A DNA stretch of 32,000 nt from Thermoleophilia bacterium (GCA_050181915.1 JBFXCS010000002.1:481820-513819), one strand, 5' to 3'; shown: positions 10,759 through 28,774, counted from the stretch's first letter. The notes: generated from the letters alone by a model not told the origin. Program-made: numbers and translations.

Positions 10759-11421
10759 GTGGAGGAGGCCCTCGACCCGGAGGATCTCGAGGTGGGCACC
10801 GATACGTCGGTGCTCATCGACCTCGCCGAGGGCAAGGTGTTCCAGGGCCTCCACGAGCTCTTTCCGGCTGTCGGGCTGCCCGGCATGGTCAAGCAGGAGC
10901 TCGAGCGGCGCACCTCGCGCCTCAACACCATGGTTCTCGCCGCCGACTGGCTCGTCCCCATCCGGGCCGAGGAGCCCGAGGACCTCGGGTTCATCGCCGA
11001 CCTGCACCGCAGCCTGGGAGGCCCGCCCAAGAACGCCGGCGAGGCGGAGCTGATCGCGCTCGCGCGGCGCCACGACTGGGTCGCCCTGATCGAGGACAAC
11101 GCCCGCAGGGTGGCGATCCGCGAGGGCGTGCACGTGATCCGCCTGAGCACCCTCGCCGCCGCCGCGGCCGCCTGCGAGGTCGTCCCGGTCGACCGCGCCT
11201 GGGGCCTTCACCGCGGGTTCCACATGCGCCGCCCACCGCAGCGGATGCCGGCGATCGGCACCACGCCGGCTGACCGCGACCGCTTCGACCGAGCGGTCGA
11301 CGCGATCGGAGTCCTGGCTGGCCATCGCGGGCGCCCCGCCTGGCCCGGGCTCCTGCGCCATCCGACCCTCAAGCCCGGCCAGCTCGATGAGCTCGTGCGC
11401 CAGATCGGCGAGCGGCCGTGA
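10759..11421 (+). CDS. PIN-like (DUF3368-type) predicted nuclease with a ~70-aa C-terminal extension
   Basis: GTG start 2 nt after the ImmA stop, RBS GAGGAGG. Acidic PIN-like positions: GTDTSVLIDL, NAGEAELIALARRHDWVALIEDNARRVAIREGVHVIRLSTL. Confidence 0.55.
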   Translation: MEEALDPEDLEVGTDTSVLIDLAEGKVFQGLHELFPAVGLPGMVKQELERRTSRLNTMVLAADWLVPIRAEEPEDLGFIADLHRSLGGPPKNAGEAELIALARRHDWVALIEDNARRVAIREGVHVIRLSTLAAAAAACEVVPVDRAWGLHRGFHMRRPPQRMPAIGTTPADRDRFDRAVDAIGVLAGHRGRPAWPGLLRHPTLKPGQLDELVRQIGERP

Positions 11422-12656
11422 CGAGCACCGCGCCGATGCCGGGCGCGGCCGTCCGACCCGCGGACGGCGAGCCCCTGCGCGCGTTCGCCTCCTACAGCTG
11501 GAAGGCGCCCGCGGACATCGAGAGCATCGCCCGGCTCGTCATCGAGCTCCGCCTGCGCGGCTTCGTCACCTTCAGGGATGCAGAGGCGATGCCGCCGGCG
11601 GGTGGCATCGAGGCGGTCATCCGCGCCGAGCTCGCCCGCAGCACGGTCTTCGTGCCGTATTTGACCCCCGACTCGCTCGAGAGCGACCCGGTCGTCGACC
11701 TCGAGTTCCACACCGCCGCCGAGCTCCGGCGCCTGCAGGGCTCACCCGTCGTCCTGCCCGTGGCGCGCAACCTCGGCACGGACCGCAACAAGCTCACCAC
11801 GGCGACCTGGGCCCGCCTGCAGCATGACTTCTCCGCTCAATGGAACACGTTCCCCGGGCCCGGCGACGGACCACTCGATCTCGCCGACGCCGCCGCCCAC
11901 GCGAACAACGCGCTCCGCGCGAGCTTCGCCGAGGGCGCCGGGCCCGCGGACGGATGCTGGGAGCTGGGCCTGGCGACCCGCGGTGAGCGGCCGCCGCCCA
12001 CCCAGCTGACCGTCGATGCGACTGGCCTCGTCGGCGGTCCGGATGCCCGAGCCGGGTCTCTGGAGGACTGGGAGAGGATCTTCGCGGGCCTCTGCGACCT
12101 GAAGCGGGCCCTCACCGCCCATGGCCGCCGCCGCCGGATCCTTCTTCGCCCGGCCTGCCATCTGAGCGCCGCCCTCGCCGTCGGTTGGGTGTTCCGCCGG
12201 GCGGCCGGCTGGCGGCTGGAGGTGGCACATGAGGACGTCGAATGCCGCTCCTCCGACACGCTCGAGCACCCGGGGCTCGTGGTCACACGCGACTACGGCG
12301 CCTTCAGCGCCCGCGGCGGGCGCCTCGTCGTCTGCATCGACCTGGTTCCGCGCGGTATCCGCGACAGCGTCATCCGGGCGCAGGCCGCCGCGCCGCGGGC
12401 GGTGCTGTCGATCAGCGCCGCCGACGGCTCCCTCCGGATCCCGGTCGACGAGCTCGGCGCGATGGCTGGCGCCGCCGCGGCGGCGATCAAGGACCTCCGC
12501 GGCGAGACCCACGCCGAGGAGGTCGCCCTCTACCTGGCGAGTCCCGCACCCTTCGCGGCGCTTCTCGGCGCCGAGTTCGGCGCGCTCGGCTGCCCGCTGC
12601 TGCTGCACGAGCACGACAACGCCACCTACCAGCCCTCCATCGTGATCCCGGGGTGA
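11418..12656 (+). CDS. TIR-SAVED fusion protein (predicted cyclic-oligonucleotide-activated NADase effector)
   Basis: The N-terminal ~130 aa are TIR-like: FASYSWK...LRGFVTFRDAE...STVFVPYLTPDSLESDPVVDLEF. The C-terminal ~280 aa resemble SAVED: ILLRPACHLSAALAVGWVFRR...ALYLASPAPFAALLGAEFG. GTGA overlap with the PIN-like gene. Confidence 0.7.
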   Translation: MTSTAPMPGAAVRPADGEPLRAFASYSWKAPADIESIARLVIELRLRGFVTFRDAEAMPPAGGIEAVIRAELARSTVFVPYLTPDSLESDPVVDLEFHTAAELRRLQGSPVVLPVARNLGTDRNKLTTATWARLQHDFSAQWNTFPGPGDGPLDLADAAAHANNALRASFAEGAGPADGCWELGLATRGERPPPTQLTVDATGLVGGPDARAGSLEDWERIFAGLCDLKRALTAHGRRRRILLRPACHLSAALAVGWVFRRAAGWRLEVAHEDVECRSSDTLEHPGLVVTRDYGAFSARGGRLVVCIDLVPRGIRDSVIRAQAAAPRAVLSISAADGSLRIPVDELGAMAGAAAAAIKDLRGETHAEEVALYLASPAPFAALLGAEFGALGCPLLLHEHDNATYQPSIVIPG

Positions 12657-13627: not shown

Positions 13628-14315
13628 CGCCAGCCGCCGGGCCGGCGGCCGATCCCACGCGCGCCGCCGGCGGCACCTCGCCCGCCAGCGCCTGCATCGC
13701 GTCCAGCGCCGTGCGCTGCGCCACCTGCGGCGGGCGAAGGCTCGCCGGAAAGCCCGCCCTTGGCGCGGCTGGTGGGAGCGGCATCCGCTCGACCTTGTGG
13801 CGCTCGAGGCCGGCTTTCCTCCCGAGTACGCGGGTTTCGAGCGTCGGATCGTCGGCCGTGCGCTCGTCTACAACGGGATCGTCGAGGTGCCGGACGTCGG
13901 TGCGCGCCGTCTGGCACTCATCTTCGCCGAGCGGCCGGGGCTGCGCGCGCCGATCGTGATGGCCGACGGGCCGCGTCGCTCCCGCCACCGCTACCGCTGG
14001 GCGCGGCCCACCTCCCTCTGCATCTGGCACCCCGATGATCCGCCGCCGGATCGCTGGAGCCTGCGCGAGGGGCTCGTTGGACTCATCGACCGAGCGCGGG
14101 TGCACCTGTTCCTCGAGGCGTGGTGGCGGGTGAGCGGCCGGTGGGACGCCCCCGAGGTCCATCGCGAGCCCCGGGGCGATGAGCGCGCAGGGGCGGGACG
14201 GGTCCGCCGAAAGGTTGCTCGCCAGTGGTGCTGGTGCGGAACTCGCCGCTACAGCGCATGCCACGGGGCGATCTCCGAGGCCAGCGAACTCACGGCCGTA
14301 GGCCTCGGCGGCTGA
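13608..14315 (+). CDS. E2/UBC-like protein with a C-terminal SEC-C zinc-knuckle motif
   Basis: HRYRWARPTSLCIWHPDDPPPDRWS resembles the E2 HPN...C...W core, after a beta-meander-like YNGIVEVPDVGARRLALIF. The C-terminus CWCGTRRYSACHG matches the SEC-C pattern. The start is uncertain: ATG at 13608 overlaps the cyclase by 20 nt, and the next in-frame GTG is at about 13797. Confidence 0.45.
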   Translation: MGTWPASASRRAGGRSHARRRRHLARQRLHRVQRRALRHLRRAKARRKARPWRGWWERHPLDLVALEAGFPPEYAGFERRIVGRALVYNGIVEVPDVGARRLALIFAERPGLRAPIVMADGPRRSRHRYRWARPTSLCIWHPDDPPPDRWSLREGLVGLIDRARVHLFLEAWWRVSGRWDAPEVHREPRGDERAGAGRVRRKVARQWCWCGTRRYSACHGAISEASELTAVGLGG

Positions 14316-18905: not shown

Positions 18906-19073
18906 TCGATGCCTCCGCGTTCGTGGATTCCGGTTCCCTCCCCCCGGCGGTCGACCGTACGAACGGGACGGTTACACCGGGGTGTGGCCTCCGTGACAGC
19001 GGGTCTCACGGCACGCATCGCCGGCCCTCTCTCGGGGCCCGGCCCCGGGGCTACTCGGGCGAGACGCCCGTCG

Positions 19074-20180
19074 TCAACCGGCCTGCGGCGGCGCGGCGGG
19101 CAGCCGCACGGTGGCGCGAAGCCCTCCCTCGGTGCGGGGGGCGAGGGTGAGGGTCCCGTCGTGCGCCTGGACGATGCTCCTGACGATCGCCAGGCCGAGG
19201 CCGACGCCGGCGTGGTCGGTGCGGATGCGTCTGCTGCCGCGCTGGAACGGCTCGGCGAGCGTGGCGACCAGCTGGGGGGTGAGCTGCTCGCCGGTGTTCT
19301 CGACCGTGAGCGCCGCTCCCCCGGGGTGAGCGCCGGTCGTGACCCACACGGTGCCGCGGTCGGGCAGGTTGTGGACGATCGCGTTGTGCACGAGGTTCAT
19401 CGCCATCTGCAGCAGCAGGGCGGGTGAGCCGACGGTGGGGGTCATGTCGCCGGAGGTCTCGATGGTGGCGCCGCGCCGCTCCGCGAGGGGCAGCAGCGAC
19501 TCGGTGGCCTCCTCGGCGATGAGGGACAGGTCGGCGTGCTCGCGGACGAATGACCGCTGATCGGCGCGGCTGAGCAGGAGCAGCGCCTCGGTGAGGTCGA
19601 TCGCCCGGGTGTTGACCGCGCGGAGGCGGTCGATGAGCTCGTCGTCGTCGCGGCTCGGATCCTTGCGGGCCACGTCGAGCAGCGTCTGCGTGACCGCCAG
19701 CGGGGTGCGCAGCTCGTGGGAGGCGTTGGCGGCGAACCGCTGCTGCTCCGCGACCTGCGCCTCGAGGCGCGCGAGCATGGCGTCGAAGGCGTCGGCGAGC
19801 TCGCGGAACTCGTCCCGGCGGCCATGCAGCCGGATGCGGTGGGAGAGCGATCCGCTCGCGGCCAGGCGCGTGGCGTCGGTGATGCGGTCCAGCGGGGTGA
19901 GCATCCGGCCGGCCAGGATCCAGCCGCCCAGGAGGCCGAACACCAGCAGGAAGGCCAGCGCGATGGCCGCCTTCGGGGCGAAGGCGTCGAGCAGGTCGGA
20001 GCGGTTGGGGATGAAGGGGGCGGGCGCGCGATCGGGCCCCACCAGGATCACCCTGTCGGGTACGTAGCGCAGCAGGAACACCCACACGACCGCGAGCAGC
20101 AGGGCTCCCGCCACCATCAGGAAGCCGGCGTAGCTGAGGGTGAGCTTGAGGCGGACGCTCAGGCCGGGGGATCTATCCAC
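19074..20180 (-). CDS. vanS: VanS-type sensor histidine kinase
   Basis: Two N-terminal TM helices with a short loop, a HAMP domain, H-box ASHELRTPL, N-box NLVHNAIVHN, G-box GVGLGLAIV. Overlaps vanR by 8 nt and is adjacent to vanHAX. Confidence 0.8.
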   Translation of the reverse strand: MDRSPGLSVRLKLTLSYAGFLMVAGALLLAVVWVFLLRYVPDRVILVGPDRAPAPFIPNRSDLLDAFAPKAAIALAFLLVFGLLGGWILAGRMLTPLDRITDATRLAASGSLSHRIRLHGRRDEFRELADAFDAMLARLEAQVAEQQRFAANASHELRTPLAVTQTLLDVARKDPSRDDDELIDRLRAVNTRAIDLTEALLLLSRADQRSFVREHADLSLIAEEATESLLPLAERRGATIETSGDMTPTVGSPALLLQMAMNLVHNAIVHNLPDRGTVWVTTGAHPGGAALTVENTGEQLTPQLVATLAEPFQRGSRRIRTDHAGVGLGLAIVRSIVQAHDGTLTLAPRTEGGLRATVRLPAAPPQAG

Positions 20181-20856
20181 GGTCCCCTTCCCCGCGCCCG
20201 CCGTCGATGCGGTACCCGGCGCCGGGCACGGTGGCGATGATCCAGGGCTCGCCGAGGCGCTTGCGCAGCGCCGAGACCGTGATGCGCACCGCGTTGGTGA
20301 ACGGGTCCGCGTTCCGATCCCAGGCCCGCTCCAGCAGCTCCTCCGCGCTGACGACGCCGCCCTCGGCGGCGACCAGGACCTCGAGCACCGCGAACTGCTT
20401 GCGGGTGAGCGGGACGTAGCGGCCGTCGCGGTAGACCTCGCGGCGGAACGGGTCGAGGCGCAGGCCGGCGATCTCGCGCACGGGCGGGCGGTGGTGGGCG
20501 CGGCGGCGGTCGAGCGCCCTGAGGCGGAGCACGAGCTCGCGGAGCTCGAACGGCTTCGTGAGGTAGTCGTCGGCGCCGAGCCCGAACCCGGAGGCCTTGT
20601 CGTCGAGACGGTCGGCGGCGGTCAGCATGAGGATCGGCATGCCGCTGCCGGAGGCGACGATCCGTCCGGCGATCTCGTCGCCGGACGGCCCGGGGATGTC
20701 CCGGTCGAGGACGGCGATGTCATAGGCGTTGGCGCCCAGCAGCTCCAGGGCGGTGTCGCCGTCACCCGCGATGTCCGCCGCGATCGCCTCCAGCCGCAGC
20801 CCGTCGCGGATGGCCTCCGCCAGATAGGGCTCGTCCTCGACGAGCAGCACGCGCAT
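20173..20856 (-). CDS. vanR: VanR-type OmpR/PhoB-family response regulator
   Basis: MRVLLVEDEPYLAEAIRDGLRLEAIAADIAGDGDTALELL...DIAVLDRDIPGPSGDEI...TKPFELRELVLRLRAL plus a winged-helix C-terminus. As I recall it, this closely matches actinomycete VanR. Confidence 0.85.
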   Translation of the reverse strand: MRVLLVEDEPYLAEAIRDGLRLEAIAADIAGDGDTALELLGANAYDIAVLDRDIPGPSGDEIAGRIVASGSGMPILMLTAADRLDDKASGFGLGADDYLTKPFELRELVLRLRALDRRRAHHRPPVREIAGLRLDPFRREVYRDGRYVPLTRKQFAVLEVLVAAEGGVVSAEELLERAWDRNADPFTNAVRITVSALRKRLGEPWIIATVPGAGYRIDGGRGEGDRG

Positions 20857-20877
20857 CCGCCGATGCTAACCGAGCCG

Positions 20878-20943
20878 CGCATATCGTCGGCATATCGGAA
20901 ACCGCATACGCGCCGGCAACGCCGCCGGCCCTGAGATGGCGGC
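20878..20943 (+). promoter_or_regulatory. van promoter module copy A (also faces vanR divergently)
   Basis: ATATCG-N5-ATATCG (20881, 20892), invariant CATACGCGCCGGCAACGC, -10-like TGAGAT (20932-20937), GTG at 20944. On the minus strand, TAGCAT (20863-20868) lies 6 nt before the vanR ATG. Confidence 0.6.
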
Positions 20944-21021
20944 GTGACCTCCAGTGAGCCGGGACGAACAGCGGTCCGCGCCCGATCGACCGTCCCCGTC
21001 GGCTCCGCCCGTGCGGCATGA
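20944..21021 (+). CDS. possible 25-codon leaderless upstream ORF coupled to the carboxypeptidase gene
   Basis: GTG sits exactly 20 nt after the module core, as in copies B and D. VTSSEPGRTAVRAR parallels the N-termini of VanH (MIRGEPRRTATRR) and the VanY-like protein (VTHGEPARTMRRVR). Its TGA overlaps the ATG at 21018 (ATGA). Confidence 0.25.
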   Translation: MTSSEPGRTAVRARSTVPVGSARAA

Positions 21022-22052
21022 GCACGAGGCCGCGGCCGCGCCGCGGGACGGCGGCCCTGTACCGTCGCCGCCGCCGACGCGCGCTGATCGGCGCGATCAT
21101 CGCCCTCCTCCTCGCGGCCGCGGCCTTCGCGCCGCCCCTCCACCTGCTCGACGACGGCGGCCGCGGCTCCCCGCCCGACCTCTCGGGCAGCGGCGCGCCG
21201 CGCGACGACGCGGACAGCGCCTACCTGTCGACGGACGGATGGCCGCTTCAGGGCCAGGGGGCGTACGTGATCGGCGACGGCCGGCCGGCGGTGAGCCCCC
21301 ACCAGCGGCCGGTCCCGATCGCCAGCGTGGCGAAGGTGATGACCGCCTACCTCGTGCTCAAGCACCATCCGCTGCGGGCCGGCGAGAGCGGCCCGCTGTT
21401 CACGGTCACCCAGGACGACGTCGAGGACACCGAGGCGAGGCTCCGAGGGGGCCAGTCGGTGGTCCCCGTCAGCGCCGGCGAGCAGCTCACCGAGCGGGAT
21501 GCCCTCATGGCGATCCTGCTGCCGTCGGCGAACAACGTCGCGGTGCTCGTCGCGCGTCAGGTCTCCGGCAGCGTCCCCGCCTTCGTCGAGGAGATGAACC
21601 GCACCGCGCGCGAGCTGGGGATGTCCCAGACGACCTACACCGATCCGAGCGGATACGACGACGGCACGGTGTCGACGGCCCTCGACCAGCTGCGCCTGGC
21701 GCGGGTGGTGGCCGAGGACGAGACGCTGGCGGCCATGATGGCCACCCGCACCCACTGGCTGCCGGTCGCCGGCGAGGTGACCAACACCAACGCCCTGCTC
21801 GGCCATGACGGCTTCGTCGGCATGAAGACCGGCTCGCACCAGGCGGCCGGCGGCTGCCTGATGTTCCGGGTCGTGTGGCCCACCGGCGGCGGCGACGTGA
21901 CGCTGATCGGCGTGGTGCTCGGCCAGCGGGGGGACAGCCTGATCACCGCGGGACACGATGCGGCCGAGCAGCTGGCGGACCGCCTGGCGCCGGAGGCGTA
22001 TCGCCCGCATATCGAAAACCCCATACGCGCCGGCAACGCCCCGCCGCCTTGA
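21018..22052 (+). CDS. serine-type D-Ala-D-Ala carboxypeptidase (S11, PBP5/DacB-like), membrane anchored
   Basis: N-terminal Arg-rich segment plus a TM helix. Carries the SxxK (SVAKVMT), SxN (PSANN) and KTG (MKTGSH) motifs. The 3' end runs through van module copy B. Confidence 0.8.
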   Translation: MSTRPRPRRGTAALYRRRRRRALIGAIIALLLAAAAFAPPLHLLDDGGRGSPPDLSGSGAPRDDADSAYLSTDGWPLQGQGAYVIGDGRPAVSPHQRPVPIASVAKVMTAYLVLKHHPLRAGESGPLFTVTQDDVEDTEARLRGGQSVVPVSAGEQLTERDALMAILLPSANNVAVLVARQVSGSVPAFVEEMNRTARELGMSQTTYTDPSGYDDGTVSTALDQLRLARVVAEDETLAAMMATRTHWLPVAGEVTNTNALLGHDGFVGMKTGSHQAAGGCLMFRVVWPTGGGDVTLIGVVLGQRGDSLITAGHDAAEQLADRLAPEAYRPHIENPIRAGNAPPP

Positions 22053-22060
22053 CTGGATGC
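21996..22060 (+). promoter_or_regulatory. van promoter module copy B (vanHAX-murF operon)
   Basis: GTATCG-N5-ATATCG (21998, 22009), CATACGCGCCGGCAACGC, TTGACT (22049-22054), ATG at 22061. Confidence 0.6.
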
Positions 22061-23065
22061 ATGATCCGCGGCGAACCGAGGCGCACCGCGACCCGCCGCA
22101 CCCCGCCGGCGACGGGTATCACGATCTACGGGTGCGGGCGGGACGAGGCCGCCCTGTTCCGGGAGAGGGCGCCTCGCCTCGGCGTCGATCCGACGATCAC
22201 CGAGGCGCCGTTGACCGACGGCAACGTCGGGCTGGCGCTCGGGAACCGATGCATCAGCGTCGGCCACAAGGCCCGTGTCGCGAACTCCGCGCTTCTCGCG
22301 CTCGGCGAGGCCGGCGTGACCTACATCTCCACGCGAAGCGTCGGATGCGACCACATCGACGTGAGCTACGCCCGGAGCCGGGGCATCACCGTCGAGACCG
22401 TCGCCTACTCACCCGACAGCGTCGCCGACTACACGCTGATGCTGATGCTGATGTCGCTGCGACATGCCGCATCCGTCATCAGGCGCGCGGACGCCCACGA
22501 CTACCGGCTGAGCGATGCGCGCGGACGAGAGCTGCGCGACCTGACCGTCGGGGTGGTCGGGACGGGGCGCATCGGCGGCGCGGTGATGGACCGGCTGCGG
22601 GGGTTCGGCTGCACGGTGCTCGCCCACGACGCGCGGCCCGCGACCTATGCCGACTACGTCACCCTCGATGAGCTGATCGAGCGGAGCGACGTCGTGACGC
22701 TCCACACGCCGCTCACCGCCGAGACGCACCATCTCCTCGACGGCCGCCGGATCGCGCGGATGAAGCCCGGTGCGGTGATCGTCAACACCGGCCGCGGCGC
22801 GCTCATCGACACCGAGGCGCTCGTCTCGGCACTGGAGGGCGGCCGGTTGGGCGGCGCGGCGCTGGACGTCCTCGAAGGCGAGGAGGGGGTCTTCTACGCC
22901 GACCGCAGGGGCACGCCCATCGACGGTGACCTGCTGCGGCTGCACAGGCTGCCGAACGTGCTGATCAGCCCGCACACCGCCTACTACACCGACCGCGCCC
23001 TGAGCGACACCGTCGAGCGCTGCCTGGCCAACTGCCTGGCCTTCGCGGGTCGAGGTCGGGCATGA
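22061..23065 (+). CDS. vanH: VanH D-specific 2-hydroxyacid (D-lactate) dehydrogenase
   Basis: ITIYGCGRDEAALF, NAD motif VGVVGTGRIGGAV, VNTGRGALID, ISPHTAYYT. ATGA overlap with vanA. Confidence 0.9.
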   Translation: MIRGEPRRTATRRTPPATGITIYGCGRDEAALFRERAPRLGVDPTITEAPLTDGNVGLALGNRCISVGHKARVANSALLALGEAGVTYISTRSVGCDHIDVSYARSRGITVETVAYSPDSVADYTLMLMLMSLRHAASVIRRADAHDYRLSDARGRELRDLTVGVVGTGRIGGAVMDRLRGFGCTVLAHDARPATYADYVTLDELIERSDVVTLHTPLTAETHHLLDGRRIARMKPGAVIVNTGRGALIDTEALVSALEGGRLGGAALDVLEGEEGVFYADRRGTPIDGDLLRLHRLPNVLISPHTAYYTDRALSDTVERCLANCLAFAGRGRA

Positions 23066-24102
23066 ACAGGCTGCGGGTCGGGATCCTCTTCGGCGGCTGC
23101 TCCGAGGAGCATCCGATCTCCGTCAAATCGGCGCAGGAGGTCGCGCGCCACCTCGACACCGCCAAGTACGAGCCGTTCTACGTCGGGATCACGACGAGCG
23201 GCGCCTGGAGGCTCTGCGATGGCCCCGGCGCGGGCTGGGAGGACGGGAACTGCCGTCCGGCCGTCCTGTCGCCGGACAGGAGCGTCCACGGCCTGCTCGT
23301 CCTGGAGCGGGGCCGGTACGAGACGATCGGCCTCGACCTGGTGCTGCCCGTCCTGCACGGCAGGCTCGGCGAGGACGGCGCGATGCAGGGCCTGCTGGAG
23401 CTCTCCGGCATCCCATACGCCGGCTGCGACGTCCCGAGCTCCGCCCTGTGCATGGACAAGTCCCTCACCTACACGGTCGCCCGCGCCGCGGGGATCGCCA
23501 CGCCGGGGTTCCGGATCGTGACGGCGGGCGAGGGCATCGATCCCGGTCTGTTCACCTACCCCGTCTTCGTGAAGCCGGCCCGCTCGGGCTCGTCGTTCGG
23601 CGTCAGCAGGGCGTCGCGCCGAGAGGACCTGCCGGGAGCGCTCGAGACCGCCGGGCGGTACGACTCGAAGGTGCTGATCGAGGAGACCGTCGTCGGCAGC
23701 GAGGTCGGATGCGCCGTCCTCGGGAACGGCCCGGACCTGCGGGTCGGCGAGGTCGACCGGATCGCGCTGTCCCACGGCTTCTTCAGGATCCATCAGGAGG
23801 ACGCGCCGGAGACGGGCTCCGAGAACTCGGTCGTGACCGTTCCGGCGGACATCCCGGAGGAGTCGCGCCTGCTCGTCCGGGAGACGGCGAAGACCGTCTA
23901 TCGCGCCCTGGGATGCAGGGGGCTGTCGCGGGTGGACATGTTCCTGAAGGAGGACGGAGAGGTGGTCCTCAACGAGGTCAACACGCTGCCCGGCCTGACC
24001 TCCTACAGCCGCTACCCGAGGATGATGGCGGCCGCGGGACTGACGCTCTCCGAGGTGATCGACCGGATGGTGTCGCTGGCGCTGGCGGGCGACGGACGAT
24101 GA
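23062..24102 (+). CDS. vanA: VanA-type D-alanine--D-lactate ligase
   Basis: MNRLRVGILFGGCSEEHPISVKSA, HGFFRIHQE, LNEVNTLPGLTSYSRYPRM. ATP-grasp Ddl fold with the VanA/B-type insertion. ATGA overlaps on both sides. Confidence 0.9.
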   Translation: MNRLRVGILFGGCSEEHPISVKSAQEVARHLDTAKYEPFYVGITTSGAWRLCDGPGAGWEDGNCRPAVLSPDRSVHGLLVLERGRYETIGLDLVLPVLHGRLGEDGAMQGLLELSGIPYAGCDVPSSALCMDKSLTYTVARAAGIATPGFRIVTAGEGIDPGLFTYPVFVKPARSGSSFGVSRASRREDLPGALETAGRYDSKVLIEETVVGSEVGCAVLGNGPDLRVGEVDRIALSHGFFRIHQEDAPETGSENSVVTVPADIPEESRLLVRETAKTVYRALGCRGLSRVDMFLKEDGEVVLNEVNTLPGLTSYSRYPRMMAAAGLTLSEVIDRMVSLALAGDGR

Positions 24103-24707
24103 CGGGCGACTTCGCCTTCGTCGACGAGCTCGTGGCCGGGGTACGCTGGGACGCGAAGTACGCGACGTGGGACAACTTCACCGGCAGGCCGGTGGACGGG
24201 TATCTGGCCAATCGCATCGTGGGCACGAGGGCCATGTGCGCCGCCCTGGAGCGGGCGCGAGACGAGGCCGCGACCCGTGGCCTCGGCCTGCTGCTCTGGG
24301 ACGGATACCGCCCTCAGCGCGCCGTGGATTGCTTCCTGCGCTGGGCGCGGCAACCGGAGGACGGCCGGACGAAGCTGCGGCACTACCCCAACATCGACAG
24401 GGCCCAGATGTTCGAGAGAGGGTACGTGGCGGCGCGGTCGGGCCACACCCGGGGCAGCACCGTCGACCTGACGCTCTACCACCTGGCCAGCGGCGAGCTC
24501 GTCCCCATGGGCGGCGGCTACGACCTGATGGATGCGGTCTCGCATCACGGAGCGCGCGGCATCACGCGGGCCGAGGCGGGCAACCGGCGATGCCTCCGCT
24601 CGCTCATGGAGGCCTGCGGGTTCCGCCCCTACGAGCGCGAGTGGTGGCACTACACCCTTCGCGGGGAGCCGTATCCGGACTCCTACTTCGATTTCACCAT
24701 CTCGTGA
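24099..24707 (+). CDS. vanX: VanX D-Ala-D-Ala dipeptidase
   Basis: WDGYRPQRAV, SGHTRGSTVDLT, EWWHYTL zinc-dipeptidase motifs; 202 aa. Confidence 0.9.
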   Translation: MTGDFAFVDELVAGVRWDAKYATWDNFTGRPVDGYLANRIVGTRAMCAALERARDEAATRGLGLLLWDGYRPQRAVDCFLRWARQPEDGRTKLRHYPNIDRAQMFERGYVAARSGHTRGSTVDLTLYHLASGELVPMGGGYDLMDAVSHHGARGITRAEAGNRRCLRSLMEACGFRPYEREWWHYTLRGEPYPDSYFDFTIS

Positions 24708-24732
24708 GGGCCGGCGGTGTCCGGGGTGACGG

Positions 24733-26079
24733 GTGCGCTGCTCGACCGCCGAGCTGACGGCCCGTCTGGGCGGTGAGCTGGTCGGGCCCGATGTGGTCGT
24801 CGAGGGGGCGGGCATCGACTCGAGGACGATCCGGCATGGGCAGCTCTACGTTCCGATCACGACCCGGCGCGACGGTCACGCCTTCATCCCGGCGGCGCTC
24901 GAGGCGGGCGCGCCGGCCTACCTCACCGCGCGGGAGCCGGTCGGCGGGACGGCCATCCGCGTCCGCGACACCGCCGCCGCCCTGCTGCGCCTCGGGGAGC
25001 TGGCCCGCGGTCGGCTCGGCGGCGCGATCGGCATCACTGGGTCGGTGGGCAAGACCACCACCAAGGACCTGCTGGCCGGTTGCCTGGCGACGACCTTCCG
25101 CACCGCCGCCAGCGAGCGCTCCTTCAACAACGAGCTGGGCCTCCCCCTGACGCTGTTCAACGCGCCGGAGGCCGCGCGCTGGGCGGTCCTCGAGATGGGG
25201 GCCCGGCGGGCGGGGGACATCGCGCGGCTGGCGCGGGTCGCACGACCCGAGGTCGGCGTCGTGACCAGCGTCGACATGGCGCACGTGGAGTACCTGGGCG
25301 ATCTCGACGGCGTGGCCCGCGCCAAGGGCGAGCTGGTGGCCGCCCTGCCGGCATCGGGTGTCGCGGTCCTGAACTTCGACGACCCCCGGGTCCGGGGCAT
25401 GGCGTCGCTCGGCGCATGTCCCGTGCTGGGGTACGGGGTGGACGGCCACGCCGAGGTGCGGGCCGAACGGGTCAGGCTCGACCGGGACCTGCGCGCCCGG
25501 TTCCGCCTGTCGTCGCCGTGGGGCCGGGCCGAGGTGCGGCTGGCGCTGCACGGCGTGCAGCAGGTCGCCGACGCGCTGGCGGCGGCGGCGGCCGCGCTGT
25601 GGTGCGGGGTCCCCATCGAGGCCGTGACCGCGGCGCTGGCGGTGAGCCGGGGCTCGCCCTGGCGCATGGAGGTCCATCGCCTGCCCGGCGGCCCCGTCCT
25701 GGTCGTCGACTGCTTCAACGCCATCCCCGCGTCGGCCGAGGCGGCCGTGCGCTCGCTGGCCGCGTTGCCGGGCCAGCGCCGGCTGGCGCTCCTCGGGCTG
25801 ATGGCCGAGCTGGGGGACCGCAGCGCCTCCGAGCATCATCGGATCGCCCTCGTGGCGGAGGAGCTCGGCATCGACGTGGTGGGGTACCGGACCGGCCTCT
25901 ACGGCGGGGCGTACGTGACCGGCGTCGACGAGGCCGTCGCCCTGCTGCGCACGATGGGCCCGGGTGACGCGGCACTCGTCAAGGGCAGCCGCGTGACGCG
26001 GCTCGAGGAGGTGGTGCACGCCTACGCGAGGGCCGTGGGCGCGTCGCCGCTCATCCTCGGCGCCGAGGCGCCCGGGTAG
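24733..26079 (+). CDS. murF: MurF paralog (UDP-MurNAc-tripeptide--D-alanyl-D-alanine/D-lactate ligase) inside the van operon
   Basis: GITGSVGKTTTKD P-loop, NNELGLPLTL, Mur ligase middle and C-terminal domains. No van module or obvious terminator separates it from vanX (25-nt gap). Confidence 0.85.
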   Translation: MRCSTAELTARLGGELVGPDVVVEGAGIDSRTIRHGQLYVPITTRRDGHAFIPAALEAGAPAYLTAREPVGGTAIRVRDTAAALLRLGELARGRLGGAIGITGSVGKTTTKDLLAGCLATTFRTAASERSFNNELGLPLTLFNAPEAARWAVLEMGARRAGDIARLARVARPEVGVVTSVDMAHVEYLGDLDGVARAKGELVAALPASGVAVLNFDDPRVRGMASLGACPVLGYGVDGHAEVRAERVRLDRDLRARFRLSSPWGRAEVRLALHGVQQVADALAAAAAALWCGVPIEAVTAALAVSRGSPWRMEVHRLPGGPVLVVDCFNAIPASAEAAVRSLAALPGQRRLALLGLMAELGDRSASEHHRIALVAEELGIDVVGYRTGLYGGAYVTGVDEAVALLRTMGPGDAALVKGSRVTRLEEVVHAYARAVGASPLILGAEAPG

Positions 26080-26097
26080 CGGCCTCGTGCCGCGGCC

Positions 26098-26165
26098 CGG
26101 CGATATCGCCGACATATCGAGAACCGCATACGCGCCGGCAACGCCGCACCCGCTGTACTCGCCGC
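26098..26165 (+). promoter_or_regulatory. van promoter module copy C (dioxygenase gene)
   Basis: ATATCG-N5-ATATCG (26102, 26113), CATACGCGCCGGCAACGC, TGTACT (26153-26158), ATG at 26166. Confidence 0.6.
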
Positions 26166-26966
26166 ATGACCTACCACGACGCATCAGCAGAGATCACCAC
26201 CGCGGAGGCGGCCAGGGCCGTGACGGACGACGGCTGGTCGGTGGTCGGAGTCCTCGACGGGCCCCTCGCCCGCCGTCTGCTCCAGGCGGTGGACGAGGTG
26301 ACGGCCCGATCCGCCGACGCCGGCGGACCGCTCCACCGGCTGTCGGGCCTGGCGCAGCACCCCGATCTGGCGGCGGTCGTCGACTGGCCGCCCCTCCTGG
26401 CGCTGGCGGTCGAGCTCCTGTCGCCCAACGTCTACATCAACCACTCCCACCTCGACGTCCACCCGCCCCACCCGCCCACCGGCGCCCGCCGCTGGCATCG
26501 CGACAACGGCCTGATGGGCCGGGACATGCGGCTGCTCTGGCGGGACCAGCCGAGGGTGACCCTGAAGGTCGCCGTCTACCTCACCGACGTGGAGTCCCCG
26601 GACGACGGCGCACTGGAGGTGGTGCCCCGCAGTCACCTCGACACGACGTCGCGATACCCCACCGAGGAGCAGCCCGACGGAGAGCCCATCCTCGGGCCCG
26701 CCGGCACGGTCGCCGTCTTCGACGCCCGGCTCTGGCACCGCCGGCGGGACAACCTCGGCACCCGCACCCGACGCGCCATGTTCATGGCGTACAGCTACCG
26801 CTGGCTGACCTCGCGCGACATCCCGTTCGAGGACGTGCCGGAGTGGGCCGACCTGTCCCCGATCCGCCGCCAGCTGCTCGGAGACCCGACGGTCGACCCG
26901 TTCTACTGGGCCTCCGGCGAGCTCCCGCTCGACCCCCGCTCCGCCGGCTACCCGGAGGCCGCCTGA
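26166..26966 (+). CDS. phytanoyl-CoA dioxygenase (PhyH)-family Fe(II)/2-oxoglutarate oxygenase
   Basis: HxD in RRWHRDNG, distal His in FDARLWHRRRDN, and R in TRRAMFMAY. Length and pattern fit the PhyH family. Confidence 0.7.
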   Translation: MTYHDASAEITTAEAARAVTDDGWSVVGVLDGPLARRLLQAVDEVTARSADAGGPLHRLSGLAQHPDLAAVVDWPPLLALAVELLSPNVYINHSHLDVHPPHPPTGARRWHRDNGLMGRDMRLLWRDQPRVTLKVAVYLTDVESPDDGALEVVPRSHLDTTSRYPTEEQPDGEPILGPAGTVAVFDARLWHRRRDNLGTRTRRAMFMAYSYRWLTSRDIPFEDVPEWADLSPIRRQLLGDPTVDPFYWASGELPLDPRSAGYPEAA

Positions 26967-26975
26967 TCGGAGCCG

Positions 26976-27042
26976 GCGCATATCGTCGGCGTATCGGAAA
27001 CGGCATACGCGCCGGCAACGCGGCGCCGCCTTGACTGGGGGC
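26976..27042 (+). promoter_or_regulatory. van promoter module copy D (VanY-like gene)
   Basis: ATATCG-N5-GTATCG (26980, 26991), CATACGCGCCGGCAACGC, TTGACT (27031-27036), GTG at 27043. Confidence 0.6.
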
Positions 27043-27627
27043 GTGACCCACGGCGAGCCGGCACGGACGATGCGACGGGTTCGGATGCGGTGGATCCGCG
27101 TCGCCGGCCTGCTCGTCGCCATGGGGGCGATCGCCGCGACCCTCGGCCATCAGATCCTGGCGTCCTCGGCGCTCGGCGAGGCCGACGGCGCCGTCCCCGA
27201 CGGCACGACGGTCTTCGACGACGCGGTCCCGGGCGTGGCCAACCTCGACCCGTCCCTCCTCGGCGCCCTGCGCCGAGCCGCGGCCGTCGCCGCGGGCGAG
27301 GGGATCACCCTCTACGTCGACAGCGGCTGGCGCTCGCCGGAGTACCAGGAGCACCTGCTCCGCGAGGCGACCCGGAAGTACGGCTCGCAGGAGGAGGCCG
27401 CCCGCTGGGTGGCCACCCCCGTCGCCTCCGCCCACGTGTCGGGGGACGCGGTCGACATCGGGCGCTCCGACGCCCGGGCATGGCTGTCCCGGCACGGCGC
27501 CGGCTACGGGTTGTGCCAGATCTACGGCAACGAGCCCTGGCACTACGAGCTGCGCCCCGAGGCCATCGATCGCGGCTGCCCTCCCCCGTACGCCGACCCG
27601 ACGCACGACCCGAGGATGCGGAGGTGA
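27043..27627 (+). CDS. vanY: VanY-type (M15B) zinc D,D-carboxypeptidase, membrane anchored
   Basis: SGWRSPEYQ, SAHVSGDAVDI, NEPWHYE motifs and an N-terminal TM helix. The GTG at 27043 is chosen by its spacing to the promoter module; alternatives are TTG 27031 and ATG 27070/27085. Confidence 0.8.
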   Translation: MTHGEPARTMRRVRMRWIRVAGLLVAMGAIAATLGHQILASSALGEADGAVPDGTTVFDDAVPGVANLDPSLLGALRRAAAVAAGEGITLYVDSGWRSPEYQEHLLREATRKYGSQEEAARWVATPVASAHVSGDAVDIGRSDARAWLSRHGAGYGLCQIYGNEPWHYELRPEAIDRGCPPPYADPTHDPRMRR

Positions 27628-27653
27628 CCCGGCACCGATCCGCACGGGCCGGG

Positions 27654-27941
27654 TCAGCCCCCGGCGACCACCTCGTCGAAGAACTCGATCGTGGTCGACT
27701 CCAGGTCGACCGTGGCCTCGGCCATCGCGGCGCGCAGGTCCTCGTCGGCGAGGTACGCGTCGGCGGCGGCGCGGCTGTCGAAGGTGTGCGTCACCACGAT
27801 GTCGGTGCGATCGCCGCTCGCGCTGAGGGCGGCGTGCGCCCGCACGCCGCCGGCCCGCTGCGCGTCGGCGAAACCGCGATAGACGGCGAGCCAGGCGTCG
27901 AAGTCCCCCACCCGATGGCGGATCAGGACGGTCGTCCTCAT
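27654..27941 (-). CDS. small ferredoxin-like (dimeric alpha/beta-barrel type) protein, function unknown
   Basis: The ATG at 27939-27941 is preceded by the strong RBS GAGGAGGAAG and makes an ATGA overlap with the aldolase stop. 95 aa (MRTTVLIRHRVGDFDAWLAVY...). The rest of the 332-aa ORF is off-frame junk. Confidence 0.5.
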   Translation of the reverse strand: MRTTVLIRHRVGDFDAWLAVYRGFADAQRAGGVRAHAALSASGDRTDIVVTHTFDSRAAADAYLADEDLRAAMAEATVDLESTTIEFFDEVVAGG

Positions 27942-28774
27942 CGCTTCCTCCTCGACGGCGTCGCGCCGTCCGTCGCGTCCGCGCCCCTGCGGAGCAGGAG
28001 CTGCCGCTTCGCGGTGGCGATGTCGTCGGAGAGCTCGCGGCACGATGCGGCGAACAGGCTCACGTCGACGCCGACCGACACCATCTGGGCGCCCATCTCG
28101 ATCAGGTCGAGCGCCGCCGCGGCCGACCACGCCAGGTCGAGCACCGGCAGCCCGTTCGCGCGCGCGGCCGCGTAGACGCGCTCGCGCTCGCTCGCGACGT
28201 CCGCGGAATGGGCCTCGGCCGGCATGCCCATCGAGACGGCCAGGTCGAACGGCCCGAAGAAGATGCCGCCGAGGCCGGGCACGGCGGCGATCTCCTCGAT
28301 GCGCTCGACGCCCGCGTACTCCTCGATGAGCGCGACCACCAGCGTCTCGTCCTGCGAGCGGGAGTAGTGATGGGGCCAGTCCGTCAGCCCCTGGTGGGAG
28401 CCGATGACGGCGGGCGTCGCGGAGCGGCGTCCCTTGGGGTGGTGGTAGCCGGCCGAGACGGCCGCCGCGGCCTCGGCCGCGGAGTTGACGTGGGGCACGA
28501 TGACGGCGGCCGCGCCCATGTCGAGGGCCTTCAGGATCTGGCCGGGGTCGTTCCAGGTCACGCGGACCGCGGCGGCGAGGTTGGCCGACCAGGCGGCGCG
28601 GATCAGGTTCGCGAGGTCGGAGCCGTACGGGCTCACCGCCGCGTGCTCGCAATCGATGATCACGAAGTCGAGGCCGGCGTGTCCGATCGTCTCCACCATC
28701 ACCTGGGAACCCGACGTGGAGAAGGTGCCGATGAGCGCATCGCCGCGGTCGAGCGCCTGCTTCAGGTTGAGCAC
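27938..28774 (-). CDS. HpcH/HpaI-family 2-keto-3-deoxy-acid aldolase
   Basis: GLDFVIIDCEHA, VRV...ILKALDMGAAAVIVPHV, IEE..GVERIEEIAAVPGLGGIFFGPFDL, typical of class II aldolases of this family. Confidence 0.8.
   Translation of the reverse strand: MLNLKQALDRGDALIGTFSTSGSQVMVETIGHAGLDFVIIDCEHAAVSPYGSDLANLIRAAWSANLAAAVRVTWNDPGQILKALDMGAAAVIVPHVNSAAEAAAAVSAGYHHPKGRRSATPAVIGSHQGLTDWPHHYSRSQDETLVVALIEEYAGVERIEEIAAVPGLGGIFFGPFDLAVSMGMPAEAHSADVASERERVYAAARANGLPVLDLAWSAAAALDLIEMGAQMVSVGVDVSLFAASCRELSDDIATAKRQLLLRRGADATDGATPSRRKR

Follow-up and report, generated by a model that had tools for sequence, protein, structure and literature searches.

The question raised by a 32,000-nucleotide (nt) stretch of DNA from a Thermoleophilia bacterium (GCA_050181915.1 JBFXCS010000002.1:481820-513819; hereafter the window, whose coordinates are used throughout and refer to the plus strand unless stated) is why one repeat stands four times among its glycopeptide-resistance (van) genes, each time with a start codon at the same distance. 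A sequence-only reading had taken the repeats for van promoter modules that yield leaderless, VanR-dependent transcripts. Using sequence comparison, annotation and literature as evidence throughout, we find that the repeats are very probably copies of a conserved promoter cassette that belongs to the VanSc-type glycopeptide-resistance clusters of actinobacteria, leaderless and, by homology, VanR-dependent. Beyond this, we somewhat favor a broader proposal, namely that a portable unit of ~90 bp, running from -66 to about +27 and comprising operator, core, -10 element, leaderless start and some nine codons constrained at the nucleotide level, has drawn unrelated gene families, at least nine of them, into the VanR regulon of actinobacteria, either by in-frame fusion or through a small open reading frame (ORF) with an RTGA hand-over, and that its CATATCG hexamers are the VanRSc operator, used in both orientations and at two distances that lie two helical turns apart.

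Four copies of one module in the window

A scan of the window located the core CATACGCGCCGGCAACGC as an exact match at 20905, 22022, 26127 and 27004, all on the plus strand, with a chance expectation of 0.14 and four copies in none of 100 shuffles; no additional core copy was found in the window at up to three mismatches. The pattern RTATCG-N5-RTATCG was found at 20881, 21998, 26103 and 26980 (chance expectation 0.20), with no other hexamer pair in the window at up to one mismatch, and in all four modules this pair forms two direct-repeat half-sites 11 bp apart. With exact cores and hexamer pairs at four sites, far above chance, the four-copy plus-strand repeat is real, and both the tandem (A/G)TATCG hexamers and the invariant core that had been described for it are present in every copy.

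Alignment of the four copies shows little or no variation from ~3 nt 5' of the first hexamer through the start codon. These start codons (GTG 20944, ATG 22061, ATG 26166 and GTG 27043) lie exactly 63 nt from the first base of hexamer 1 in four of four modules, and the gap between core and start codon is 21 nt in each, so the earlier value of 20-21 nt was essentially right. Numbered from the start codon, the hexamers occupy -63 to -47 and the core -39 to -22, and in none of the four plus-strand modules do the repeats overlie or replace a -35 element as in pho-box geometry. Read as two extra in-phase 11-bp repeats, the core gives spacings of 14 and 12 nt, an imperfect periodicity.

Shortly before each GTG or ATG stands a -10-like hexamer, as first described: TGAGAT, TTGACT, TGTACT and TTGACT in modules 1 to 4, at -12 to -7 and 6 nt from the start, with the TGAGAT of module 1 the most divergent of the four. 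The usual A at position 2 is missing from all four, which the sequence-only reading had also remarked, and the 6-nt spacing to the start is kept in all, the intervening nucleotides being GGCGGC, GGATGC, CGCCGC and GGGGGC in the same order. No Shine-Dalgarno sequence is present at functional spacing in the modules; the consensus GGnGG sits 1-2 nt from the start. The resemblance continues into the first codons, with (A/G)TGACC in modules 1, 3 and 4 and the peptide xEPxRT in modules 1, 2 and 4, matching the three copies each that had been claimed.

The module in van loci of other genomes

For comparison, 80 loci around VanA homologues of 75-82% identity were scanned together with the window, giving 81 sources (cited by L numbers below); the best VanA match in the genome collection was 82%. 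The scan yielded 160 modules in 71 of the 81 sources. There was no module at any of the seven Bacillota/Chloroflexota-type loci, on one 2.9-kb fragment or at two actinobacterial loci. The consensus of the 160 modules reads GCATATCGTCGGCRTATCGAAAACCGCATACGyGCCGGCAACACC-N7-CCTTGACTGGnGGC-ATGACCTACAGCGAACCAGC. Throughout the 160 modules the hexamers stay 11 bp apart and their positions are 92-100% conserved; in 156 of the modules the offset of an ATG or GTG is 63 (133 modules) or 64 (23 modules).

The genes behind these modules encode VanH (69), VanY (20), VanK (19) and VanJ (7), and further module-driven genes encode a VanZ-like protein, MurF, an S11 peptidase, a PhyH protein and an ABC ATPase. 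Across most of these genera VanR keeps 91-95% identity, compared with 75-82% for VanA. Judged by this comparison, the module is a general actinobacterial van promoter and is not special to this genome.

The hexamer pair alone, at one mismatch, was tried as a search motif and rejected as nonspecific, with matches to a coding stretch of vanH in many loci. The mimic is GAATCG-N5-CGTATCG, which lies about 750 nt into vanH (e.g., 9675 in L003), resembles the pair with one mismatch, also occurs in non-actinobacterial loci and will give false positives in genome-wide motif scans.

The hexamer pair as the candidate VanR operator

The module 1 hexamers also lie, inverted, in front of the divergent vanR gene (Table 1), whose predicted promoter has both a TANNNT-type -10 and leaderless spacing; the plus-strand modules have the spacing alone. 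The cognate OmpR-family regulator gene vanR adjoins the modules, and it is in this divergent vanR promoter that pho-box geometry is found. The arrangement (C)TCGTAGCAT-N6-ATGCGTGTG recurs in most of 43 vanR homologues, 40 of which have a -10 (mostly TAGCAT) at -12 to -7 and an inverted hexamer pair at -41 to -25, with the location of the inverted hexamers tallied as -42 to -40 over these 40. At L053 and L073 the sequence agrees with the vanR string published as leaderless. As in the window, the vanR hexamer pair usually also serves a divergent module, 87 nt start to start. At L002, L003, L004, L039 and L067 this divergent module has decayed, with the hexamers kept and the core gone. A third geometry, seen at about 13 Streptomyces and Kitasatospora loci, has inverted hexamers at -41 to -25, TTGACT and an ATG with no core, and precedes murF. 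Across the loci compared, no element other than the hexamers occurs in all VanR-linked promoters. Because the hexamers alone are shared by the modules and the vanR promoters, the comparative evidence favors the hexamer pair as the best candidate for the VanR operator. The original suggestion that the hexamers are probable VanR boxes gains from this common occurrence, from the 11-bp spacing in 160 modules and from co-occurrence with a conserved VanR.

The core itself (CATACG-N6-CAACRC) might instead be the VanR site, with the hexamers binding something else or acting in an UP-like manner. It is conserved as strongly as the hexamers, it occupies -39 to -22, the usual place of PhoB-type activators, and the CATACG inside it resembles the hexamer. 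We regard this as unlikely, as the vanR promoters and the ~13 promoters with inverted hexamers and TTGACT have hexamers at -41 to -25 and no core in a functional position, and the stand-alone vanR promoters (L002, L003, L004) have wholly lost the core and retained the hexamers. The hexamer pair remains the preferred operator candidate.

The third geometry (L023, L034, L038, L046, L051, L052, L056, L060, L062, L064, L065, L079; minus strand, mostly ~12060) reuses the hexamers of the vanH module in inverted orientation. Its divergent TTGACT-N6-ATG promoter drives a small ORF, which in most such loci has an RTGA overlap into murF.

Leaderless transcription and the link to Streptomyces coelicolor

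A survey of leaderless genes (PMC3160421), citing Hong et al. 2004, gives 13 cases documented in the literature, three of which are S. coelicolor vanH, vanK and vanR. The 20-nt -10/start strings of this survey are the only module sequence printed in the accessible literature, and the comparison with S. coelicolor covers the last 20 nt given in those strings, the full modules being taken from S. coelicolor-like loci. Module 4 (GCGCCGCCTTGACTGGGGGCGTG) and the consensus are both near-identical to the published vanK string CCGCCGCCTTGACTGGGGGCATG, as module 2 is to the published vanH -10/start string. At the S. coelicolor-like locus L053 the three printed strings recur with 1-2 mismatches, and the locus carries full hexamer-core modules before vanJ, vanK and vanH (exactly three) in addition to the vanR promoter; L073 also has a full module. 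These three modules and the vanR promoter have their counterpart in the four VanR-dependent transcription units of S. coelicolor, where vanRS is divergent from vanJ (PMC10345050, PMC6001138).

The leaderless, VanR-dependent reading is supported because the modules are homologous to these mapped S. coelicolor promoters. The promoter kind is already known from S. coelicolor, and the window copies are further members of it. In this genome, transcription would start at the first base of the start codon. The leaderless transcripts proposed from the sequence thus find backing in strings that match documented S. coelicolor genes, as far as these are printed, and in the fixed offset of the start codon, kept by 156 of the 160 modules. 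That the repeats are van promoters is borne out by their position before van genes beside a VanSc/VanO-type vanRS, and by the starts called by the Prokaryotic Genome Annotation Pipeline (PGAP), which coincide with the module start codons for VanH and the PhyH protein; for S11 the PGAP start is ATG 21018.

It could be argued that TTGACT is a -35 element, as it agrees with the sigma-70 -35 consensus at five of six positions, and that transcription starts ~30 nt downstream, with the ATG and first codons forming the promoter spacer; conservation at the nucleotide level to about +27, synonymous sites included, would suit such a spacer. We consider this highly improbable. The consensus has no TANNNT 16-18 nt downstream of TTGACT, there would be no explanation why an ATG or GTG, in frame with VanH, VanY, VanK and others, keeps its offset in 156 of the 160 modules, the S. 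coelicolor homologues vanK and vanH are listed as leaderless genes in PMC3160421, and the precise RTGA junctions described below argue that the small ORFs are read. An extracytoplasmic function (ECF)-type promoter (GAAAC...CGCC), considered by eye, was also set aside, since neither the fixed start codon nor the S. coelicolor mapping agrees with it.

A leader conserved at the nucleotide level

The sequence-only reading had proposed that promoter and N-terminus form one cassette, and the other loci bear this out, with the start M(T/S)YSEPART shared by VanH, VanY, VanK, MurF, S11 peptidase and ABC ATPase; in its longer form, M(T/S)YSEPARTAARR, the start is common to unrelated proteins. The conserved leader comprises about nine codons, ATG ACC TAC AGC GAA CCA GCA CGA ACA, with conservation reaching to about +27. 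Its first 20 nt are still conserved in 96 modules outside the VanH group, a tally that includes 9 VanH genes classed as "other", with no effect on the conclusions. At leader codon 5, GAA accounts for 92% of Glu codons, compared with 36% in gene bodies; the corresponding leader and gene-body shares are 76% and 6% for CCA (Pro), 77% and 10% for CGA (Arg), and 78% and 9.5% for ACA (Thr). The fold energy of the first 36 nt is -5.1 kcal/mol, compared with -11.0 for internal windows. An Rfam scan of 19000-28500 returned a single sub-threshold chance match, within the PhyH gene, and because there was no real match, the conservation past +1 is not explained by a known RNA leader. As synonymous sites are fixed to rare A-ending codons, the codon pattern argues for a constraint at the nucleotide level (a 5' end kept free of structure, or a promoter-proximal element) and not for peptide function, and the segment from +4 to +27 may be functionally needed.

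Between +12 and +26 the leader contains CGAAC twice, 10 nt apart (AGCGAACCAGCACGAACAGCG), which could represent a binding site, an RNA feature or plain E-P-x-R-T codons.

As one peptide heads the unrelated enzymes VanH, VanK, VanY, MurF and S11, it could also be a protein tag (a degron or an interaction sequence), with the nucleotide conservation secondary. We give this little credence. The peptide is a detached small ORF in at least 27 cases, some VanH proteins are nearly without the extension, the PhyH protein keeps just three leader codons, the peptide is found on both cytoplasmic and membrane-anchored proteins, and the synonymous positions are fixed to the rare codons described above.

The small ORF of module 1 and stop-start overlaps

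The earlier reading needs correction for module 1, whose GTG opens a probably coupled small ORF and not the S11 gene. This GTG (20944) is out of frame with the S11 gene (ATG 21018), and the TGA of the small ORF overlaps the S11 ATG, giving ATGA at 21018-21021. Small ORFs of 8-52 codons follow 27 modules across the loci and, despite lengths that vary from 8 to 39 codons, 22 of the 27 have the stop-start overlap RTGA, before genes of three families (MurF, VanK and S11). A Conexibacter locus (L050) has a 26-codon ORF, ATGA and an S11 gene, the S11 orthologue of L007 is fused in frame instead, and MurF occurs both ways, as a 474-aa fusion and as a small ORF followed by a 447-aa protein. Within the window, the vanH/vanA (23062-23065) and vanA/vanX (24099-24102) junctions are also ATGA. 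The small ORF is predicted to be translated, and its translation would be needed for S11 expression. That the small ORF is an assembly frameshift, with S11 truly an in-frame fusion, can be largely set aside despite the origin of the window in a metagenome-assembled genome (MAG) and the in-frame orthologue of L007, because the 344-aa product from 21018 is present under three NCBI accessions and in Logan, the independent Conexibacter locus has the same layout, and the exact stop-start overlap is the same as in the 22 of 27 cases elsewhere.

The resistance island and its genes

The window has a G+C content of 73%, and its proteins are recorded from a Thermoleophilia MAG. The features of the island are collected in Table 1. 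PGAP names the vanR product "VanSc-type ... VanR", and this product is one of the 4537 members, from several genera, of a 90%-identity cluster; the VanA of the window is also matched as VanA-Sc type by NCBIfam. One flank encodes an alkaline phosphatase, a methyltransferase and a LuxR regulator, the other an aldolase and a sugar-binding protein. These flanking genes are unrelated, and the van genes form a stand-alone resistance island and not an antibiotic gene cluster. A vanRS-HAX-Y arrangement, sometimes with murF, has been reported for Solirubrobacterales (PMC8698665). Five transcription units are predicted for the window: vanRS, the small ORF with S11, vanHAX-murF, PhyH and vanY.

Table 1. 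Position, strand and supporting evidence of the promoter elements and genes of the van island
Feature	Position	Strand	Remarks
vanS sensor kinase (VanS-O/Sc type)	19074..20180	-	Pfam HAMP, HisKA, HATPase_c; NCBIfam HK_VanS_O 485 bits, under 720 cut-off
vanR, OmpR/PhoB-family response regulator	20173..20856	-	Pfam Response_reg, Trans_reg_C; NCBIfam vanR-O 450 bits, under 505 cut-off
Predicted -10 TAGCAT of leaderless vanR promoter	20863..20868	-	At -12..-7 of ATG 20856; read from sequence
Module 1 hexamer pair ATATCG-N5-ATATCG	20881..20897	+	-63..-47 of module start; inverted, -41..-25 of vanR
Module 1 core CATACGCGCCGGCAACGC	20905..20922	+	-39..-22
Module 1 -10-like TGAGAT	20932..20937	+	
Predicted 25-codon leaderless small ORF (VTSSEPGRTAVRARSTVPVGSARAA)	20944..21021	+	TGA 21019-21021
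S11-family D-Ala-D-Ala carboxypeptidase	21018..22052	+	Pfam Peptidase_S11 1e-30; PGAP start 21018
Module 2	21998..22060	+	Hexamers 21998-22014, core 22022-22039, TTGACT 22049-22054
vanH	22061..23065	+	NCBIfam VanH models match from residues 16-20; PGAP start 22061
vanA D-Ala-D-Lac ligase	23062..24102	+	NCBIfam D_ala_D_lac 604 bits, over 550 cut-off
vanX dipeptidase	24099..24707	+	NCBIfam dipept_VanX 389 bits, over 320 cut-off
murF-like ligase, last of vanHAX-murF unit	24733..26079	+	Pfam Mur ligase domains
Module 3	26103..26165	+	Hexamers 26103-26119, core 26127-26144, TGTACT 26154-26159
PhyH-family dioxygenase	26166..26966	+	Pfam PhyH; PGAP start 26166
Module 4	26980..27042	+	Hexamers 26980-26996, core 27004-27021, TTGACT 27031-27036
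vanY-type DD-carboxypeptidase, begins VTHGEPARTMRR	27043..27627	+	Pfam VanY; NCBIfam vanY_far weak match

Several gene boundaries bear the mark of the modules. The N-terminal extension of vanH, 15-19 residues beginning MIRGEPRRTATRRT, is cassette-derived, and the PhyH gene keeps just the first three cassette codons, ATGACCTAC. The S11 ORF runs through the whole of module 2 and ends at a TGA inside its TTGACT (22049-22054); since it reads through the vanH promoter module, its last ~18 residues are encoded by promoter DNA, and the L007 S11 orthologue ends likewise (...YRRHIQDHIRPGNPPLP). The 194-aa VanY product from GTG 27043 is missing from the protein collection in which the neighboring proteins are present, and for this reason the public VanY annotation probably uses another start, e.g., TTG 27031 inside the -10-like hexamer. 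The murF gene of the window has no module of its own at up to three mismatches. The ORF at 24167-24757 was considered as vanX and rejected, being in the wrong frame and without a Pfam match.

The PhyH-family (ectoine-hydroxylase-like) dioxygenase has its own module here and in a Solirubrobacteraceae MAG (L007, module at 13685), and its protein falls in a 49-member 90%-identity cluster that is mostly metagenomic. We know of no role for this family in glycopeptide resistance. Unrelated to the van island, the ORF at 11418-12656 encodes a TIR and SAVED domain protein with the architecture of an effector of the CBASS (cyclic oligonucleotide-based antiphage signaling system) type of defense.

Proposed mechanism

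In the proposed sequence of events, a glycopeptide would switch VanS to kinase mode, as established for S. coelicolor, and dimers of phosphorylated VanR would bind the tandem CATATCG hexamers head-to-tail, one helical turn apart. RNA polymerase would then be recruited to a promoter without a recognizable -35 and with an unusual -10 of the TTGACT type, where the core at -39 to -22 may serve as a further degenerate VanR site (CATACG...) or as an essential polymerase contact. Transcription would start at the A or G of the start codon, 6 nt past the -10-like hexamer, as shown for the S. coelicolor homologues, and the resulting leaderless mRNA would be translated from its 5' end through A-rich, weakly structured leader codons, the cassette in this way extending into the transcript. 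Genes could be recruited in two ways: by in-frame fusion to the leader, as predicted for vanH, vanY and the PhyH gene of the window, or behind a short leaderless ORF with an RTGA stop-start overlap (termination-reinitiation), as predicted for the S11 carboxypeptidase. A single 87-bp region would both autoregulate vanRS, through the inverted pair at -41 to -25, and drive the divergent unit.

Several points weigh against this mechanism. The plus-strand hexamers lie at -63 to -47, away from -35 and unlike those of classical PhoB promoters, and the mechanism does not explain why the core is so very strongly conserved. Sigma-A promoters of actinobacteria normally need an A at position 2 of the -10, which none of the -10-like hexamers has, and a generic scan of 19000-28500 for sigma-70 promoters and terminators was empty, with 0 of each. 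Gene starts in GC-rich genomes generally show weak 5' structure and A-ending early codons, which are, for that reason, no specific proof of leaderless translation. The module copies are phylogenetically related, and because they share ancestry, their counts are not independent events. In this organism the transcription start, VanR binding and induction are inferred from sequence. A structural paper of 2021 stated that the recognition sequence of VanRSc was still unknown (PMC8329863), the VanR motif of actinomycetes was stated to be undetermined in 2016, when gel shifts with the Amycolatopsis homologue VnlR failed (PMC5036315), and our search of the literature for a defined VanR motif or ChIP-seq (chromatin immunoprecipitation sequencing) in Streptomyces found neither.

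Implications

The operons of this resistance island, which belongs to an uncultured Thermoleophilia bacterium, are mapped with confidence, and the S11 DD-carboxypeptidase and the PhyH-family dioxygenase come out as probable extra members of the glycopeptide-induced regulon. The comparison over 71 loci supplies a concrete candidate for the VanRSc operator, which papers up to 2021 call unknown, and the motif should allow the VanR regulon to be predicted from sequence. For annotators, the start codon past a van promoter may belong to a small ORF and not to the enzyme. The module also offers an example of how a leaderless promoter may spread, carrying its own start codon while the recruited gene is fused or stop-start coupled. 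Relative to the accessible literature, the definition of the hexamer operator with its two orientations, the nucleotide-constrained leader and the fusion-or-coupling rule appear to be new.

Comparison with known systems

The closest known counterparts are the vanH, vanK, vanJ and vanRS promoters of S. coelicolor (Hong et al. 2004, Mol Microbiol 52:1107, as cited in PMC3160421, PMC10345050 and PMC6001138). They resemble the window in belonging to a VanSc-type cluster, in serving VanR-dependent, vancomycin-inducible units (shown there) and in their CCTTGAnT-N6-ATG -10/start sequence; in both, vanRS is divergent from a module-driven gene, and leaderless transcripts are documented for S. coelicolor. 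The window differs in coming from a Thermoleophilia MAG and in having S11, murF in the vanHAX unit, PhyH and vanY instead of vanJ and vanK. It also has four modules compared with three, one of which drives a coupled small ORF.

Enterococcal van mRNAs have leaders. In enterococci, an OmpR-family VanR autoregulates vanRS and activates vanHAX, as is proposed here, and its phosphorylated form binds at PvanH and PvanR (Holman et al. 1994, as cited in PMC8329863). VanR-A/B and VanRSc share <20% identity and the upstream regions are unrelated (PMC8329863). The same paper used the PmrA-DNA structure 4S04 to model VanRSc.

With the pho box and the PmrA box, the window modules have in common two direct hexamers at 11-bp periodicity. 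The PhoB pho box and the PmrA box are both direct repeats of the form hexamer-N5-hexamer. The vanR promoter of the window is like the pho box in that the hexamers replace the -35 and end ~12 nt before the -10. The plus-strand modules are unlike it, with the repeats 22 bp further upstream and in the opposite orientation, and with an 18-bp core filling the -35/spacer.

Leaderless mRNAs of actinobacteria, e.g., mycobacteria, typically follow a -10 that ends 6-7 nt before a 5'-terminal AUG or GUG, and short 5' ORFs are found among them. The window modules share with actinobacterial leaderless mRNAs (Zheng et al. 2011, PMC3160421) the hexamer spacing, the lack of a Shine-Dalgarno sequence and the short 5' ORFs. 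They differ from typical leaderless promoters in their -10, which is TTGACT rather than TANNNT, and in that the start codon and about nine codons appear to travel with an activator-dependent promoter to at least nine gene families.

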